A stretch of DNA of 29,457 nt from Candidatus Hodarchaeota archaeon (GTDB lineage Archaea > Asgardarchaeota > Lokiarchaeia > Sigyniarchaeales > SOKP01). The first letter of the stretch is position 1. Each line of letters starts with the position of its first letter. Below are positions 3,588 to 22,033 of the stretch, in pieces. The translations under genes were made by a program, and so were the position numbers. The notes under the pieces are model-generated. The model made no database searches. It saw only the letters and a program-made list of their open reading frames with translations, and was not told where the DNA came from. Location: the NCBI GenBank assembly GCA_048886685.1, contig JBHLKM010000029.1, forward strand, positions 1-29,457. The letters are read 5' to 3'.

Positions 3588-3780
3588 TTTTAATGCCTTT
3601 GAATAATTTTTTTTTTCTATAGAATAAAAATCTTAGAATTTTGATATATAGTAAAGATATTAAAAGATTAGGAGTCCATTATTTAAAAATATTGATTTTA
3701 GTTTAAATATTAAAGAAAAGAATTAAGAAATATGAAATATTCCTTCTAAAAAATTAAATTTAATTCGTTTTTGAAGGGAA

Positions 3781-5448
3781 GTGATTAATATCGCAGTTAC
3801 CTTTATGAGGAAACTAGAACTCGAACCAGATACCTATGATGAGCAATTTACAGTTTTAACAAAAGGCGTTAATTTAGAAGTTAAAGATTGGATTTCAGAA
3901 CGGATTGGAACATCTAAATATATATTAGAAGTAGGATGTGGTACAGGCGCCCTTGCTGCTAAGATCGCACTACAAGGGAATGATGTTTTAGCAATAGACA
4001 AAAATTTTCAAATGATAAATACTGCCATGAAGAACTATCCTTCTGAAAATGATGTAAAACTAATCTATCAAATAGGAACTATCAGAGAATTACCCGCTGA
4101 TGAAGAATCAAAAGATTTTATTGTAAGTACATTTATGCTTTCTGAGCTAGGACCATTTGAACAACAAATTTTTCTACGAAATGCTTGGAAAGTATTGAAA
4201 CCAGGGGGTAAATTAATAGTCGCTGCTGAATTTATGCCTTCTGGATTTTGGAAAATAACATTTAGAGTAAAACGATGGTGGTACAAGAAAAAATTAAGAA
4301 GACTGCGACTACCAAGTACCTCAGTCGTCAAATGGTTTTTTAATTATATAGAACCTATAGGATTCAAAATCAGTGCAGAGCGAAGATGGAAAAAGGGAAC
4401 AATTAAAGCTCTGGAATTAGAAAAGGTTGGAGAGAACCCAAATTATTATCGCCCTGCACAAAAAAAATTCAAAGGGCTTCTAGGACAATTTCAAATATAC
4501 CGATGTATTTTAACAGGACAAGTAGATCATATTCCTATTGAACCCGGAATTTATCAATCTGGAAAACCAGACCAAAAATCGCCAATAATCGCAACTGCAA
4601 ACTATATTTATACATATATAAAAGTCATGAGATCTCTTAAAGGAATAGATGCTTGGGTACTATGTGTAGATTCAAGAGGAATAAATGTTTGGTGTGCGGC
4701 TCGAGGGGATGATTTTGGCAACAGACAATTAATTGAAGCTGTTGAAGCAACAGGAATAGATAAAATAACGAATAGAAAAACATTGATCCTTCCTCAACTT
4801 TCAGCGGGAGGTGTTGCTGCACCATTAATCTCCATTGAATCTCCTGATTTTCCATTCAATCTATTATATGGTCCAGTATGGGCTAAATATTTACCTAAAT
4901 ACTTAGAAGGACGTCCTGCGAAAAAACCAGATAAGTGGAAATTGGCCAGATTTACTGGTTCTCATCGATTAAGAGCGTTTATAACACACACGACATTTTT
5001 ATTGAGAAAGATTTTCTTTTGGCCAACAATTTTCATTCTTCTGCTCCTTTTAGGGTTAAGTTTTGTTAGTACATTTTGGATCGACAAATTTTGGAGGATT
5101 GGAGAGATATGGCTTTGGATAATTCTTAGTAATTTTCTCATAGCGTCTCTCTTCCCTCTTACGAATTTCACACGGAAATTTCTTATTAAAGGGATGATCT
5201 TTGGGATATTAAATGTTTTATTTCTCGGTGCGATAACATGGATAATTCATCGTTCACTACTATTAATTATATGGAATTTTTGTTTCTATTTCTGGCTAGC
5301 GTTCTTCTCAACTATGAGTTTTAGTGGTTATTCGATGGCTACTAGTCCCGCTGAGATTCAAGAGGAATATCCAATTTTTAGGAAATTGCATCTTCCATTG
5401 TTGTTCATTGGATTGATTACAATTACTTTCGGATTTATCTTTTATTAA
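3781..5448 (+). CDS. hgcA: Fusion of a class I SAM-dependent methyltransferase with an HgcA-like corrinoid protein and C-terminal membrane domain
   Basis: N-terminal third: ILEVGCGTG (motif I), AIDKN, DFIVSTFMLSEL, LKPGGKLIV. Middle: EPGIY..GKPD..SPIIATANY, DAWVLCVDSRGINVWCAARG, LILPQLSAGGVAA, YGPV. C-terminus: 4-5 TM helices ending MSFSGYSMATS..EIQEE (HgcA pattern MNFTG.T..TS.SGV..E). GTG start is preceded by GAAGGGAA; alternative ATG at 3805. The symbol means hgcA-like; mercury methylation is not demonstrated. Confidence 0.85.
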   Translation: MINIAVTFMRKLELEPDTYDEQFTVLTKGVNLEVKDWISERIGTSKYILEVGCGTGALAAKIALQGNDVLAIDKNFQMINTAMKNYPSENDVKLIYQIGTIRELPADEESKDFIVSTFMLSELGPFEQQIFLRNAWKVLKPGGKLIVAAEFMPSGFWKITFRVKRWWYKKKLRRLRLPSTSVVKWFFNYIEPIGFKISAERRWKKGTIKALELEKVGENPNYYRPAQKKFKGLLGQFQIYRCILTGQVDHIPIEPGIYQSGKPDQKSPIIATANYIYTYIKVMRSLKGIDAWVLCVDSRGINVWCAARGDDFGNRQLIEAVEATGIDKITNRKTLILPQLSAGGVAAPLISIESPDFPFNLLYGPVWAKYLPKYLEGRPAKKPDKWKLARFTGSHRLRAFITHTTFLLRKIFFWPTIFILLLLLGLSFVSTFWIDKFWRIGEIWLWIILSNFLIASLFPLTNFTRKFLIKGMIFGILNVLFLGAITWIIHRSLLLIIWNFCFYFWLAFFSTMSFSGYSMATSPAEIQEEYPIFRKLHLPLLFIGLITITFGFIFY

Positions 5449-5508
5449 ATAAAAGAATAACATAAATATGAAAAAACATATTATCTTATTAAAACATTAA
5501 ATAAGGAT

Positions 5509-5814
5509 GTGTTTGAAATAACCCTAAAACCCTCCTCGATTCAAATAACAATAACACTTCCAAAAATATCAATCGATCCAGATTTATGCACTGGATGTGG
5601 AATCTGCGCAGAAATCTGCCCTTTTGGAATTCCCCAACCAAATAATGTTGGGAAATTCGAAATATATGAACCTGAAAGATGCACTGAGTGTAGTGCATGT
5701 AAAAGAAATTGTCCTGCAATGGCAATTCTTCTCCAAGAGCGTAAAGGGTGTGGATGCTTATGGGATGCTCGAGCTCGATCCAAAAATCCCCAGAGTAATA
5801 GTTGTTGTGGATAG
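5509..5814 (+). CDS. hgcB: HgcB-like 2x[4Fe-4S] ferredoxin
   Basis: CTGCGICAEICP and CTECSACKRNCP ferredoxin motifs (HgcB consensus C(M/I)ECGAC), GCGC (HgcB GVGC), C-terminal SCCG; lies 60 bp downstream of the hgcA-like gene. Confidence 0.8.
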   Translation: MFEITLKPSSIQITITLPKISIDPDLCTGCGICAEICPFGIPQPNNVGKFEIYEPERCTECSACKRNCPAMAILLQERKGCGCLWDARARSKNPQSNSCCG

Positions 5815-7330: not shown

Positions 7331-8176
7331 TTAAAAATAGCTTTTCTTCTTTTTTTCTTCAAGATAACTCATTTTTGTAAGGATGTCGATTTCTGAGATG
7401 AGCCAGCATAGTTCATCATAAGAACAACTTGAATTAAACACTTCTTCAGCCTTCTTCCGTATATCTTCAATTGACGGGAGTTCAAGATTTATCTTTTGGA
7501 TACGTTCAGCCAATAACCAACAGAGTTCATTATAAGTGTATTTTTTTAAAGAGAAATAATAAGCTGCTTCTCGTATTTGAGTTTTGAACTCTGGTTCTTC
7601 TACTTGTTCTATAAGTGCTTCTTTTTGAGTAATTTTTTCGGCAAGGAATGTTTCACTATATTCTTTTTCGGCAGATGATTTTTCAGTTTTAATAACTTTG
7701 ACAGTTTCTGAGGTTTCGTCAGCTTTTAGTCCTGGTTCCAAACTTCTATGTTCTTTAATTTGAGTCAGCCATTCTCTTAACCTCGTTTCAACTTTAATTT
7801 CACGCTCCTCTGGTGTTCCATCAAGTTTAATAGATTCAATCTTTTCAGGGGAGACTTCAAATACGAACTCGGGTCTTCTTTCAATAGAAACTCCTGGAAT
7901 TAATCCCTTTTTGAGATGATGCATCATTGCTAAAAAGGAACCATATTCTCTTTTTTCTTTCATGATGAGTATTTTTGTAGAACCACCACGTTCTTTATCC
8001 AGTTTTCTTGCAGTTTCAGCAGTGATATCCTTTTTTTCTTGTTGGACTTTTGATCCCACCCAAATATATATCGTGTTTTTTTTTTCATCATCTACAAGAT
8101 AAACATCATTTTCCTCAAAGGATAATTTATCTAATTGGATTAATTCTCCTTTTTCACTGATTTTATATAATCGCAT
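7331..8176 (-). CDS. Gelsolin/villin-domain protein (single gelsolin domain, acidic linker, duplicated C-terminal helical motif)
   Basis: LYKI...SFEENDVYLVDD...IYIWVGSK...EK...A..LDKERGG...E..E...F is the gelsolin repeat pattern. C-terminal repeats IREAAYY...YNELCWLLAE and IRKKAEE...YDELCWLISE. Confidence 0.8.
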   Translation of the reverse strand: MRLYKISEKGELIQLDKLSFEENDVYLVDDEKKNTIYIWVGSKVQQEKKDITAETARKLDKERGGSTKILIMKEKREYGSFLAMMHHLKKGLIPGVSIERRPEFVFEVSPEKIESIKLDGTPEEREIKVETRLREWLTQIKEHRSLEPGLKADETSETVKVIKTEKSSAEKEYSETFLAEKITQKEALIEQVEEPEFKTQIREAAYYFSLKKYTYNELCWLLAERIQKINLELPSIEDIRKKAEEVFNSSCSYDELCWLISEIDILTKMSYLEEKKKKSYF

Positions 8177-15603: not shown

Positions 15604-16734
15604 ATGACTGAAGTAGATTATTATGATGTTGTAAGAAAGAAGTTAGTTTTAGGACCAATAAGCGCCCCGAAACATAGAAAAATAACTAAGCTAATGAAGG
15701 TATTTTGGAATGAAGAAGAAATTAAGTTGCTTTCTCACTTTGACTCAGCTGACAGCTGGACATCATTAAGACAATTAGAAGAAAGATCGGGAATACCGAA
15801 AGATGAAATTAAGCAGAAATTAAAAAGATCTTTAAGAATCGGTACGATATCTAAAAGAGGTTCTAAATATTGTCTTGAACCAATAATCCCAGGAATTTTT
15901 GAGAAGTATTTTCAAAGAAGTCTCGATACTGAAGAGAATTTAAATAAAGCAGCTCAATTATATAGAGATATTATGAAGCAGGTAATGCCTCAAAATACCC
16001 GTGATAACGATTGGAGTCTTTTCCGTCCACTTCTTCCCTTGGAGGCAAATGAAAAACTAATCGAAATTAATAAGGATTATGATGTTCAATCACAAACCTT
16101 ACCATATGAAACGGTAATGAACCTTATTGATAAACACGATCAATTTGGGGTAATAACTTGCCAATGCCGTTTGATAGGTGAATTATCTGGAGAACCCTGT
16201 GAAGTAGCTCCAGCAGAGATGGGATGTTTTATAGCTGGTCCAGCAGCTCAAATGATGGTTGATAATGGAGTTCGTGGAGCGAGAGTATTAAATAAGGAAG
16301 AAGCTATTGAATTTCTCAAAGAAACCGAAAAAAAAGGCTTAGTACATAATGCTATTTTTGATACCGGTTTTGAATCTTCAAATTTCTTTTGCAATTGCTG
16401 CGGTTGCCATTGTGGAGCTTTATTTCCCGCAAATATATTTCACGAAAGGGGAACTATTCAGTCTAATTATTCCCCTAAGTTTAATAACGATCTCTGTACA
16501 AAATGCGAAACTTGTATGAGAAAATGTCCTCATGGAGCAATATATCATAGATTTCAAAATGAATATAACTTACATGATGAACAAATGGTTGTAAAGGAAG
16601 AGTTGTGCATAGGCTGTGGCATTTGCGCAGCAAATTGTCCAAATGATGCTCTTAAAATGATAAAAATACGAGACAATATTCCCCCAGAAAAACAGCTAAT
16701 AGGAAATAAAACTTTTACAGAAATGCTGCAATAA
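15604..16734 (+). CDS. 4Fe-4S dicluster protein with N-terminal HTH-like region and Cys-rich central domain
   Basis: CQCR, GLVH, CNCCGCHC, CTKCETCMRKCP, CIGCGICAANCP. Confidence 0.88.
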   Translation: MTEVDYYDVVRKKLVLGPISAPKHRKITKLMKVFWNEEEIKLLSHFDSADSWTSLRQLEERSGIPKDEIKQKLKRSLRIGTISKRGSKYCLEPIIPGIFEKYFQRSLDTEENLNKAAQLYRDIMKQVMPQNTRDNDWSLFRPLLPLEANEKLIEINKDYDVQSQTLPYETVMNLIDKHDQFGVITCQCRLIGELSGEPCEVAPAEMGCFIAGPAAQMMVDNGVRGARVLNKEEAIEFLKETEKKGLVHNAIFDTGFESSNFFCNCCGCHCGALFPANIFHERGTIQSNYSPKFNNDLCTKCETCMRKCPHGAIYHRFQNEYNLHDEQMVVKEELCIGCGICAANCPNDALKMIKIRDNIPPEKQLIGNKTFTEMLQ

Positions 16735-17942: not shown

Positions 17943-18479
17943 ATGGGTATTAAATCTGCATTTTATAAGATCTGTATAGTGGGTGATTATGGAGTAGGAA
18001 AAAGCACTCTCTTACATCAATATTTAGAGAGGCGTTTTATATCTAATGTACAATCTACTATAGCATCAAACTTTTTTGTAAAACGTTTAAAAATCCCTAA
18101 CGTTAAAAATATGGTAACATTGCAGATATGGGATCTAGCGGGTCAAGATCATTTCAAATGGGTTCGACAAGCTTTTTATAAAGGAGCGAAAGGGATAGTA
18201 ATCATTTTTGATTTATCTCGGAAAGAAACCTTTGACCATCTAACAACCTGGATATCAGAAGTGGAAAACACTATTGGTTTTGTCCCAAGAATTTTAGTAG
18301 GTAATAAATTGGATTTAATCAACCCTCATACCAGAGTTATTCCAGAGCAAAATCATTTATCTTTCAAACAAACCATAAACGCCTGTTCATATGAAGAAAC
18401 CAGCGCTAAATTAGGTACTGGAGTAGATAATATTTTTTATAAGCTAACACTTGAAATGAATAAAAAGTATAATAAATAA
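17943..18479 (+). CDS. Rab-like Ras-superfamily small GTPase
   Basis: G1 GDYGVGKS, G2 STI, G3 LQIWDLAGQ, FYKGAKG, G4 GNKLD, G5 ETSAK; no C-terminal Cys motif. Confidence 0.95.
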   Translation: MGIKSAFYKICIVGDYGVGKSTLLHQYLERRFISNVQSTIASNFFVKRLKIPNVKNMVTLQIWDLAGQDHFKWVRQAFYKGAKGIVIIFDLSRKETFDHLTTWISEVENTIGFVPRILVGNKLDLINPHTRVIPEQNHLSFKQTINACSYEETSAKLGTGVDNIFYKLTLEMNKKYNK

Positions 18480-19720: not shown

Positions 19721-22033
19721 ATGATTGATAATATTCATGAAAAGTTTAAATCAGATTTATTAGAAATACTTCAGCCTGAAATTCAAAAACACACTTTCGG
19801 TGTTTATAAAATTATAAACTTTAAAAGAAAACACATTCAGAATACAATATGTAAAATCGACCCAATAGGTCTTCCCGAAGAATTATCAAAAGAAATTTAT
19901 AGTTTCTTACTAAAATTTTTTTCTCAGTATTTTAAAAACGGGGAGTTTCATTATGAAGGTAAGCATTATGAATATTCCACATCTGTTTCTAATGAAAATG
20001 AAGTTCTTTTACATTGGTTGAATAAAGACCAGTACTATGTGAAATCTATAGATTCATATATCAAATCGGGAAAAAAAATTTCAAAAGACTATTTTATCCA
20101 TAAAGATTTAAAAGGATTTCTTGAGTCTGAATTAAATGTCTTTATTTCAAAAGAGATATTAAGATTTGAAATTCTTAGAAAACTTGAATATGAAGATTTA
20201 AACAAATATTTGGAAATAGCTAAAGTTGTAGAAGAGATTGCTATTAAACTAATTGATATATTAGCTAAAATTGAAATTTTTCAACTACAAATATGGAACA
20301 AGAGAAATTTTGTATTAAAAACCAATTACGTTATTACACTCGATAAAATAAAACAATATGCAGGAGAGAGTTTTCTAAGAAAAATTCTTTCCAAAATTTT
20401 AAACAATAAAGAACAAATGAAAGAATGGTCTGATTTTTTTGGAATTAATGACGAAAACAAACCTGAATTACCAATAAGCGCCCAAAGTAATATTGACACA
20501 TGGAAACATCTCCCTATTGATACGAAATATTTCGATGATGACTTCAAATGGGAATTAATTACTTTCCTAACATATAATCATAGTTTAGATAATATACTTG
20601 ATGGAACCTTAATAAAAAGCGAAAATTTTCAAGCATTAAATTTGATAATGAAAAAATGGAGAGGAAAAATAAATCTCATTTATCTGGATCCTCCTTTTAA
20701 TACGGGAACTAAAGAATATCTTTACAAAAACGATTACTTAGACTCTTCATGGCTAGTAATGATGTATGACCGTTTAAACCAAGCCAAAACCATATTAAAT
20801 GAAAATGGGAATATATTTGTTAGAATAGATAATAAGGGTAATCATTATATGAGATTTTTACTAGACATGATATTTGGTACGCCAAATTTCAGAAATGAAA
20901 TTATAATCAATAAAACTAAAGCAAAAAGACAAATAAAAAAACCCTTTATTCAACAAACCGAAAGTCTCTTTTTTTATTCAATTTATGATGAATATTACTT
21001 CAATCAAATCCAACACAAAAGAAAGGAACCAAAGTGGTATGAACTTTTAGATTTACCTAGATCAAATGAAAATCCGCGAACAATTCTAGGAAAGAAATAT
21101 TATCCACCTAAAGGTAGAAGATGGGGGCTTTCCCAAAAAAGAATTAATATTTTTGAACAAGAAGGAAAAGTGAGGATAAACAAGCAAAAAAGGTATATTG
21201 ATTGTTTTGAAAATATAATAAATGAAAAACCTGAATTATATTATGATTTAGAACCCATACGAAATGATTGGTTGGATATCCCTGGTTATTCTCAAGTTCA
21301 TAAATTTTCAACAGAAAACTCTGAAGAATTGCTACAAAGAGTAATTGAAAGTGGATCAAAAGAATACGACTTAATTTTAGATTTTTTCTTAGGTTCTGGT
21401 ACAACTTCTGCGACAGCTCATAAATTAAATAGAAAATGGATTGGGATTGAGATTGGTGATCACTTTGAAAATTTCATTTTACCACGGATGAAATCTGTTT
21501 TAAAAGGTGAAAAATCTGGAATTTCAAAAACCATGAATATTAATAAGGATGGATTTTTTAAATATCACTATTTAGAACAATATGAAGATTCTATTGAAAA
21601 TGTCAAATTTGACCACCCTGAAAAAACACTCTACCAATTTAATGATAAAGAAAATCAATTAAGCCTGAATATTAATAATATAGATGACCCTTTTCAATTT
21701 AAATTAAGAATCTCTGATATCCATGGATCAAAATTAGTCGTTGTTGATTTAATCGAAACATTCAATTATCTGATAGGTTTAATGGTCGAAAGGGCCCATA
21801 AATTAAAAAAGGATGATAAAGATTATATTATCATTACAGGGAAAGCCAGTGCTGATCGGGTCGTCATAGTTTGGCGTGAAATTATTGATCTCGATTACGA
21901 GCAGGATAAAAAATTTATTAAAGAGAATTTAAAAGACATCTACTACGATAATTTATACGTAAACGGAATGTGTTTAGTCAAAGGTTATAATCAAATAGAG
22001 GTGGAACTGAAAAACTTAATATGTGAATTTTGA
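19721..22033 (+). CDS. Type III R-M Mod-like amino (N6A/N4C) DNA methyltransferase, beta class, orphan
   Basis: LIYLDPPFNTG (motif IV) precedes LDFFLGSGTT (motif I); YKND..DSSWL.MM.DRL, FRNEII, WIGIE. LHW.NKDQYYVKS, LEQYED and VDLIETFNYLIGL are typical of long Mod subunits. Confidence 0.88.
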   Translation: MIDNIHEKFKSDLLEILQPEIQKHTFGVYKIINFKRKHIQNTICKIDPIGLPEELSKEIYSFLLKFFSQYFKNGEFHYEGKHYEYSTSVSNENEVLLHWLNKDQYYVKSIDSYIKSGKKISKDYFIHKDLKGFLESELNVFISKEILRFEILRKLEYEDLNKYLEIAKVVEEIAIKLIDILAKIEIFQLQIWNKRNFVLKTNYVITLDKIKQYAGESFLRKILSKILNNKEQMKEWSDFFGINDENKPELPISAQSNIDTWKHLPIDTKYFDDDFKWELITFLTYNHSLDNILDGTLIKSENFQALNLIMKKWRGKINLIYLDPPFNTGTKEYLYKNDYLDSSWLVMMYDRLNQAKTILNENGNIFVRIDNKGNHYMRFLLDMIFGTPNFRNEIIINKTKAKRQIKKPFIQQTESLFFYSIYDEYYFNQIQHKRKEPKWYELLDLPRSNENPRTILGKKYYPPKGRRWGLSQKRINIFEQEGKVRINKQKRYIDCFENIINEKPELYYDLEPIRNDWLDIPGYSQVHKFSTENSEELLQRVIESGSKEYDLILDFFLGSGTTSATAHKLNRKWIGIEIGDHFENFILPRMKSVLKGEKSGISKTMNINKDGFFKYHYLEQYEDSIENVKFDHPEKTLYQFNDKENQLSLNINNIDDPFQFKLRISDIHGSKLVVVDLIETFNYLIGLMVERAHKLKKDDKDYIIITGKASADRVVIVWREIIDLDYEQDKKFIKENLKDIYYDNLYVNGMCLVKGYNQIEVELKNLICEF

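Follow-up and report, generated by a model that had tools for sequence, protein, structure and literature searches.

A CpaM-like methyltransferase fused to an HgcA-like corrinoid protein in Lokiarchaeia, and the arsenic gene context of its clade

A methyltransferase–corrinoid fusion and its partner ferredoxin

The DNA stretch analysed here (the window; 29,457 nucleotides of contig JBHLKM010000029.1, assembly GCA_048886685.1, from a Candidatus Hodarchaeota archaeon of the Lokiarchaeia) carries at 3781-5448 a single gene in which a class I S-adenosylmethionine (SAM) methyltransferase is joined to a relative of HgcA, the corrinoid protein of the mercury methylation system HgcAB. The gene encodes 555 amino acids (aa) counted from GTG 3781, or probably 552 aa from ATC 3790, and after a gap of 60 bp it is followed by an open reading frame (ORF) for an HgcB-like 2[4Fe-4S] ferredoxin (5509-5814); both genes, and all features described within them, are on the + strand. 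An initial annotation, made from the sequence alone, had named the 555-aa ORF, the SAM-binding motif I ILEVGCGTG (3922-3948), the cap-helix Cys codon (4693-4695) and the downstream ferredoxin, and all of these lie where it placed them. The three-part architecture it described is borne out by Pfam and NCBIfam matches, by five transmembrane (TM) segments and by an AlphaFold2 (AF2) model.

The methyltransferase domain (aa 7-213, 3799-4419) has the methyltransferase CpaM as its best NCBIfam match, in line with the resemblance noted in the initial annotation: NF043040 gives 136.8 bits, under its cutoff of 180, over model positions 3-214 of 216, and the next methyltransferase family reaches 48. Residues G52, G54, G56 and D73 are nearly invariant in the 146 family members over which conservation was counted. 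The HgcA-like corrinoid-binding domain (~aa 232-390, 4474-4950) is followed by a predicted five-helix TM domain (5011-5442; five hydrophobic segments at aa 411-554), within which lies a variant of the HgcA C-terminal motif, FSGY.M.TSP.EIQ.EY (5320-5370). Pfam places Methyltransf_11/25 at aa 48-147 and CdhD (PF03599) at aa 236-342, and the HgcA profile NF040863 matches aa 251-546 with 163 bits (cutoff 275). The cap helix GINVWCAARG (4678-4707) contains Cys305 (TGT), the predicted counterpart of the cobalt ligand Cys93 of HgcA from Pseudodesulfovibrio mercurii ND132, and this Cys is present in 146/146 family members. The AF2 model of the fusion has a pLDDT of 85.8 and a pTM of 0.82; the closest structure to it is the computed HgcAB model 9a0b, followed by class I methyltransferases, and a sequence search of the PDB returns generic methyltransferases and CFeSP only.

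The ferredoxin ORF is 101 aa long. Its two CxxCxxCxxxC cluster motifs, C27-C37 (5587-5619) and C58-C68 (5680-5712), are followed by a GCGC motif (5746-5757) and a C-terminal Cys-Cys (C99-C100, 5803-5808) like Cys94/Cys95 of HgcB. C81, in the GCGC motif, sits 13 residues past the last cluster Cys, which is the spacing of the essential Cys73 in HgcB; C83 is an extra thiol. The GCGC motif is found in nearly all partner ferredoxins of the clade to which the fusion belongs, whereas canonical HgcB has one Cys there, mostly as GVGC. CGC and a terminal CC or CxC are retained across the clade's partner ferredoxins, and this thiol tail is absent from all eight HgcAB-like fused proteins that we compared. 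The HgcB profile NF040864 scores the ferredoxin at 53.6 bits, below its cutoff of 99, yet remains its best family. A split triple fusion or read-through arrangement can be rejected: the ferredoxin is in the same frame as the fusion, but two TAA codons stand between them and the ferredoxin is a separate gene clade-wide.

Both genes probably begin at non-AUG codons, ATC 3790 for the fusion and ATA 5518 for the ferredoxin. Each lies 5-6 nt past a Shine–Dalgarno-like sequence (GTGAT/GATGTG), where relatives carry ATG. Across 58 fusion genes the initiator-aligned codon is ATG in 30, ATC in 17, ATA in 7, GTG in 2 and CTG in 1 (1 misaligned), and 15/17 ferredoxins of the subgroup have ATA, ATC or ATT at the initiator position, 5-6 nt past such a motif.

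The fusion recurs across Asgard genomes and is under purifying selection

The best 120 database matches, with the protein itself excluded, are nearly all full-length fusions with 60-87% identity, assigned to Promethearchaeota/Lokiarchaeota where named, and 120/120 contain GINVWCAARG. A survey of 35 same-genus genomes finds strong, mostly full-length fusion matches in 30, and matches at 30-35% identity are found in at least two other Asgard families. The junction (4400-4520) is bridged by single contigs in three sediment runs of one study. Junction, homologues and recurrence together reject an assembly chimera; the fusion is no oddity of a single genome and recurs across Asgard genomes. All three domains are under purifying selection, with dN/dS of 0.06-0.12 relative to the closest relatives (0.10-0.12 for the methyltransferase and 0.055-0.067 for the corrinoid domain).

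An HgcA-family clade distinct from canonical HgcA and from CdhE

The corrinoid-domain tree holds 131 sequences, after removal of near-duplicates, of proteins shorter than 300 aa and of all but 32-36 canonical HgcA; it is rooted on four Asgard CdhE sequences, and its backbone is unresolved and its bootstrap not fully settled. CdhE stands apart at 100/100, canonical HgcA forms a clade at 99/93, and the fusion falls into a clade of its own (100/92) of 40 NVWC(A/G)ARG sequences from Lokiarchaeia and one distant Asgard family (f12), probably Thorarchaeia. A sister relationship of this clade to canonical HgcA is not rejected (approximately unbiased (AU) test, p=0.27). The grouping with HgcA and not with CdhE, as initially proposed, is upheld by the 100/100 separation, and a CdhE/AcsC paralog is rejected on this ground, by the presence of the cap-helix Cys and by a score of 58.8 bits against the NF003195 cutoff of 306.

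Canonical membership does not hold. The fusion shares with canonical HgcA the invariant cap-helix Cys and, by prediction, the five-helix C-terminal TM domain, but it lies outside the canonical clade, scores below the NF040863 cutoff (an Asgard canonical HgcA scored 436 bits in the same kind of search), and its NVWCAARG cap is outside the six high-stringency motifs, NVWCAAGK and five variants (PMC10087281). The ferredoxin has the two cluster motifs, a Cys73 counterpart, a C-terminal Cys and adjacency to an hgcA-like gene, but misses the NF040864 cutoff and carries CTECSAC in place of C(M/I)ECGAC. With CpaM the picture is similar: the score is under the cutoff, CpaM is the best family by a wide margin, and the association with an HgcA-family corrinoid protein, which the family name implies, is provided by the fusion itself. 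The HgcAB-like fusion family NF043039 does not apply, as the ferredoxin is a separate gene and the score is 165 bits (cutoff 285). Judged by sequence, the fusion is best described as a relative within the HgcA family that is neither canonical HgcA nor CdhE. The labels 'full HgcA-type' and 'HgcB-type' of the initial annotation thus named the right families and were overstated, since both proteins fall under the family cutoffs.

Could this be an overlooked mercury methylase, methylating Hg(II) as HgcAB does, with the SAM domain supplying the methyl group? Mercury methylation by ND132 HgcAB requires Cys93, the TM domain, Cys73 of HgcB and at least one terminal Cys (PMC7305189), and counterparts of all of these are present here; the unrejected sister position to canonical HgcA is also compatible. 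Set against this are the separate clade, scores far under the cutoffs and a cap motif absent from the verified set (PMC10087281); organisms carrying non-canonical fused HgcAB produced no methylmercury when tested, and the annotated neighbours include recognisable ars genes but no recognisable mer genes. We consider such a role very unlikely; Hg(II) methylation as a side reaction, whatever the native role, is plausible, though less likely than not. Survey filters disagree on this protein: the short filter N(V/I)WCA(A/G) (PMC12484752) accepts it and the stringent filter (PMC10087281) does not, and the choice of filter may thus decide whether sediment Lokiarchaeia are scored as mercury methylators or overlooked.

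CpaM pairing is a feature of the non-canonical part of the family

Other branches of the tree also hold methyltransferase::HgcA-like fusions, in Hodarchaeales and in proteins labelled Anaerolineae and Abyssubacteria, as well as stand-alone CpaM beside HgcAB-like fusions, and triple fusions. Many relatives have a second locus, with either separate cpaM and hgcAB-like genes or a triple fusion of 580-670 aa. Some fused Hodarchaeales proteins are already labelled CpaM by NCBI. Canonical hgcA neighbourhoods differ: no CpaM-like neighbour was found at any of 81 loci, only 36 of which are at least 8 kb long. The best neighbour scores there, at most 65 bits, are those of generic methyltransferases (family members reach at least 136), three of the four CpaM-profile matches sit where ArsM also matches, and we reject CpaM as a general partner of canonical HgcA. 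Since fused, stand-alone and triple-fusion forms occur across the other branches, the CpaM partnership is characteristic of the non-canonical part of the HgcA family.

The initial annotation had read the fusion as Rosetta-stone evidence for a dedicated SAM methyltransferase that charges the corrinoid. This argument stands for the present clade and does not extend to canonical HgcAB, because canonical loci lack CpaM and purified HgcAB binds SAM (dissociation constant 33 uM) and methylates its own cobalt without a partner methyltransferase (PMC11588087).

The survey also turned up other arrangements of the family. Triple fusions of methyltransferase, HgcA-like protein and ferredoxin (580-670 aa) occur at L116, L134, L135 and L167 and as P0265, P0267, P0272 and P0285. 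Further Asgard clades of stand-alone HgcA-like proteins (~320-330 aa, neither domain fused) have the caps NVWCGSRG or NVWCSAAG (L189, L190, L191 and L184-L186, L196, L197). The only canonical hgcAB in the 200 Asgard genomes searched (L138, G083:C110; 436 bits) is close to Anaerolineae HgcA; upstream of it are genes for an ArsM-like methyltransferase and a probable reductase of the flavodoxin fold.

In relatives the gene pair is part of ArsR/Acr3 operons

Three lines of gene context tie the clade to arsenic genes: adjacency to acr3 and arsR, a palindrome linked to arsR, and a MarR family shared with arsM. Across ~79 clade loci with an upstream gene, a few of them duplicates, this gene is acr3 in 32, arsR in 14, a gene for a Cys-rich MarR protein in 13 and none of these in 20; acr3/arsR-type context, with ArsR of the CVC type, thus accounts for 46. 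None of the three was found upstream at 17 loci of other HgcA-like clades. The acr3/arsR adjacency is found in several genera of the family and in a second Loki family, and adjacency to arsR also in a distant Asgard family; ArsC homologs lie downstream at several loci. The commonest order is a divergent arsR, sometimes DUF166, acr3, the fusion, the ferredoxin, two small genes and sometimes arsC, and the complete arsR-acr3-fusion-ferredoxin operon is present in two closed genomes, G049 (4,324,194 bp) and G054 (6,035,313 bp). In relatives, then, the gene pair belongs to an ArsR/Acr3 operon. Canonical hgcAB, too, is frequently close to ars genes (PMC7438021); in our set of 81 canonical hgcA loci, 19 have ArsR nearby and 9 have Acr3.

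A CxC(E/D) site is present in 42/43 clade ArsRs, and a palindrome, TCAWAT-N12-ATWTGA, lies upstream of 29/43 arsR genes with at most one mismatch, compared with 22/860 shuffles. It also stands directly before the fusion at loci that have lost acr3 (L063, L097, L127, L128) and at others that lack an adjacent arsR (L079, L085, L123). We regard it as a candidate Lokiarchaeia ArsR operator. In the genome under study it occurs at C14:113949 (L168/L177).

The Cys-rich MarR found before the fusion at 13 loci has as its best homolog in this genome a MarR that heads a methyltransferase-arsM operon, and eight related genomes show the same. The operon lies at C8:64080-66430 on the - strand (L170) and consists of the MarR gene, a gene for a methyltransferase of 267 aa and a true arsM; in a sister group, homologues with 54-59% identity to this MarR head the corrinoid fusion.

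The ancestral ars operon also contains a candidate selenoprotein (C14:111739-112215, equal to L168:351-827, - strand), with homologues at ~25 loci, for example L059:10460-10807. Its ORF ends in TGA-TGA or TGA-GGN-TGA-TGA in 30/30 copies with a complete 3' end, and TGA makes up 17% of stops in the neighbouring genes. The frame runs on for ~35-45 conserved residues to a eukaryote-like selenocysteine insertion sequence (AUGA..AA..GA), and the genome has tRNA-Sec. The protein has no NCBIfam match and lies outside the families named in the accessible part of PMC11227280.

The copy in this genome lies outside the operon

In the window the gene pair has a small membrane-protein gene on one side and unrelated genes on the other, with no regulator. 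The divergent intergenic region upstream of the fusion (3588-3780) is without the palindrome of ars-linked copies: a position weight matrix (PWM), trained without the arsR-acr3 spacer on contig C14 of this genome, scores it at -4.3, compared with 14-27 at operator-bearing loci, and the best genome-wide match, 18.6, is that same C14 spacer. Contig C14 retains arsR, acr3 and the two small downstream genes without the fusion; since the remainder of the ancestral operon is kept there, the gene pair most likely moved out of it. With the palindrome lost and the operon left behind, this copy is probably not induced by arsenic through ArsR. We looked for relaxed selection after the departure by dN/dS and saw none; strong purifying selection persists on this copy.

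Proposed function and alternative acceptors

We think it likely that the pair forms a membrane-anchored, self-charging corrinoid methyltransferase that passes SAM-derived methyl groups to a thiophilic metal or metalloid. The route proposed in the initial annotation, from SAM to Co(I) and on to an acceptor, is retained as what appears the likeliest chemistry. Each chemical step is modelled on HgcAB, starting from parts and a gene context that are directly observed. The HgcB-like ferredoxin would first reduce the corrinoid to Co(I). The fused CpaM-like domain, which carries a SAM site, would then methylate Co(I) to give methyl-Co(III) with the Cys305 thiolate as ligand. Four thiols of the ferredoxin are free, in CGC and in the terminal CC; they may hold the metalloid and present it to methyl-cobalt, and the methylated product would depart, to be exported or volatilised.

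Docking of the unlinked methyltransferase and corrinoid/TM parts gives a score of 0.39 (best control 0.00), with runs agreeing on at least 95% of contacts and a partner pLDDT of at least 82. The mark it passes is reached by 58/80 solved and 2/110 mismatched pairs; at scores of 0.60 or less, it is reached by only 7 solved pairs and both mismatches. The model thus lends weak support to contact between the two domains, as passes at the 0.39 level are oftener wrong than right unless the contact is likely beforehand.

As native acceptor we tentatively favour arsenic, at somewhat less than an even chance, as thiol-bound As(III) or a methyl- or thio-arsenical (possibly also Sb(III)). It is the best candidate because of the gene context of the relatives and because methylcobalamin-dependent arsenic methylation is known, as a side reaction of MtaA (PMC13262295). 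Direct, ArsM-type binding of arsenic by the methyltransferase domain is rejected: the domain scores 35 bits against the ArsM (NF008823) cutoff of 263, and its only Cys is C53, in SAM motif I, so it lacks an ArsM-type set of arsenic-binding cysteines and is not an ArsM. Any arsenic methylation would therefore have to go via cobalt.

Several observations weigh against arsenic. ArsR-type CVC sites can sense other soft metals. Clade loci are related to one another, so the context counts are not independent, and other CpaM::HgcA-like clades have the same architecture and no ars context. The initial annotation had left the acceptor open, and the context of relatives that now points to arsenic is one from which this copy is detached: the PWM scan found no palindrome upstream of it, and no ars gene is nearby. 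ArsM is present in this genome and in 14/35 same-genus genomes, including the acr3-linked G031, and also in G054 (G049 has no ArsM above cutoff). In ND132, which has canonical hgcAB, neither As(III) nor As(V) gave rise to mono- or dimethylarsenic at detectable levels (10.1101/2022.10.17.512643), and in the authors' summary the knockout is reported to have lost no significant arsenic resistance. The co-occurrence of ArsM with an acr3-linked fusion shows no strict complementarity, and we reject the reading of the fusion as a simple replacement for ArsM.

That co-occurrence would be compatible with the reverse direction, in which Co(I) demethylates methylarsenicals, with the SAM domain serving solely to reactivate cobalt that has become oxidised, as happens in methionine synthase. 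Demethylation of arsenic under anaerobic conditions is known (PMC13262295), and the abstract of 10.64898/2026.08.27.747368 calls its mechanism less resolved. However, the operon has no conserved downstream enzyme that would accept the methyl group, and the SAM step of HgcAB is irreversible and belongs to turnover (PMC11588087), which makes demethylation distinctly improbable in our view.

An arsenic-induced enzyme could also methylate something else, such as sulfide, selenide, a thiol, a membrane lipid or a quinone, in a stress or repair function. The closest solved fold to the methyltransferase domain is phosphatidylethanolamine N-methyltransferase (8ys9, TMt 0.76), and a long basic-aromatic helix lies at aa 157-174. 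The candidate tandem-Sec selenoprotein and the DUF166 protein of the ancestral operon would suit such a function, as would the strong conservation of the gene after leaving the operon and the sister clades without ars context. But the clade-wide four-thiol tail of the ferredoxin suits a soft cation better than a lipid, and a lipid methyltransferase needs neither corrinoid nor ferredoxin; we judge another acceptor unlikely. Reductive dehalogenation of halomethanes, which has been proposed as the native role of canonical HgcAB, is the most remote of the roles weighed here: heterologously expressed HgcAB dechlorinates CCl4/trihalomethane, according to the abstract of a preprint (10.64898/2026.04.26.720869), but such an activity would leave both the conserved SAM domain and the ArsR/Acr3/MarR context unexplained.

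If arsenic is the acceptor, a broader reading suggests itself, which we regard as speculative and rather doubtful: a dedicated arsenic methylation pathway, cobalamin-dependent and independent of ArsM. The HgcA family would then have arsenic chemistry as its native and perhaps even its ancestral role, and mercury methylation would be a side reaction of a branch without the SAM domain.

Other genes in the window

A gelsolin-repeat protein gene (7331-8176, - strand), the usual downstream neighbour of the fusion in this subgroup, and a Ras-family small GTPase gene (17943-18479, + strand) are ordinary Asgard eukaryotic-signature genes. The window further encodes, both on the + strand, a protein of 376 aa whose C-terminal domain is of the 2[4Fe-4S] type (15604-16734) and one of 770 aa that contains an internal N6/N4 DNA methylase domain (19721-22033).

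Significance and comparison with known systems

Why microbes carry HgcAB is a long-standing open question, in which arsenic has been suspected from scattered gene neighbourhoods. What we describe is a whole clade of HgcA relatives with its own SAM-binding domain that keeps every residue known to matter for mercury methylation. As a two-gene enzyme with a specific substrate prediction, it makes the natural role of the HgcA family testable. Already known are HgcA-like proteins in Loki and Thor genomes (PMC10083202), the association of hgcAB with arsenic genes (PMC7438021) and the NCBI CpaM label on some fused proteins; the first of these studies assigned some Loki/Thor sequences to the HgcAB subtree and, without comment, cut 327 N-terminal columns from the alignment. 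New here are the operator motif, the MarR common to the fusion and arsM, the lack of CpaM beside canonical hgcA, the contrast in ferredoxin thiol tails and the copy outside the operon. A full-text literature search found no description of the fusion architecture or of its ArsR/Acr3 regulation, and 'CpaM corrinoid' gave no match; earlier mention outside the searched texts is possible.

Like canonical HgcA/HgcB of P. mercurii ND132, the pair combines a corrinoid domain with a cap-helix Cys, five TM helices and, from a gene of its own downstream, a 2[4Fe-4S] ferredoxin that has a terminal CC and a Cys 13 residues past the clusters, and ArsR/Acr3 neighbours are frequent in both. It differs in the added N-terminal SAM methyltransferase domain, in the cap (NVWCAARG, canonical NVWCAAGK), in the ferredoxin motifs (CTECSAC and GCGC, canonical C(M/I)ECGAC and GVGC), in scores below both hidden Markov model cutoffs and in its separate clade. 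The P. furiosus-type system of CpaM with an HgcAB-like fusion pairs the same methyltransferase family with an HgcA-family corrinoid protein, whereas in the present pair it is the methyltransferase that is fused and the ferredoxin that stands alone, with a thiol tail; ars context was seen only in this clade, and the scores are below both family cutoffs. With ArsM the fusion shares the class I SAM fold and a regulatory setting of ArsR, Acr3 and a common MarR family, but its methyltransferase domain has one Cys where the true ArsM of this genome, on contig C8, has 11. Finally, CdhE/AcsC shares the PF03599 corrinoid-binding fold, but CdhE lacks the cap-helix Cys and is split off by a long branch, and this genome encodes its own CdhE on contig C1.

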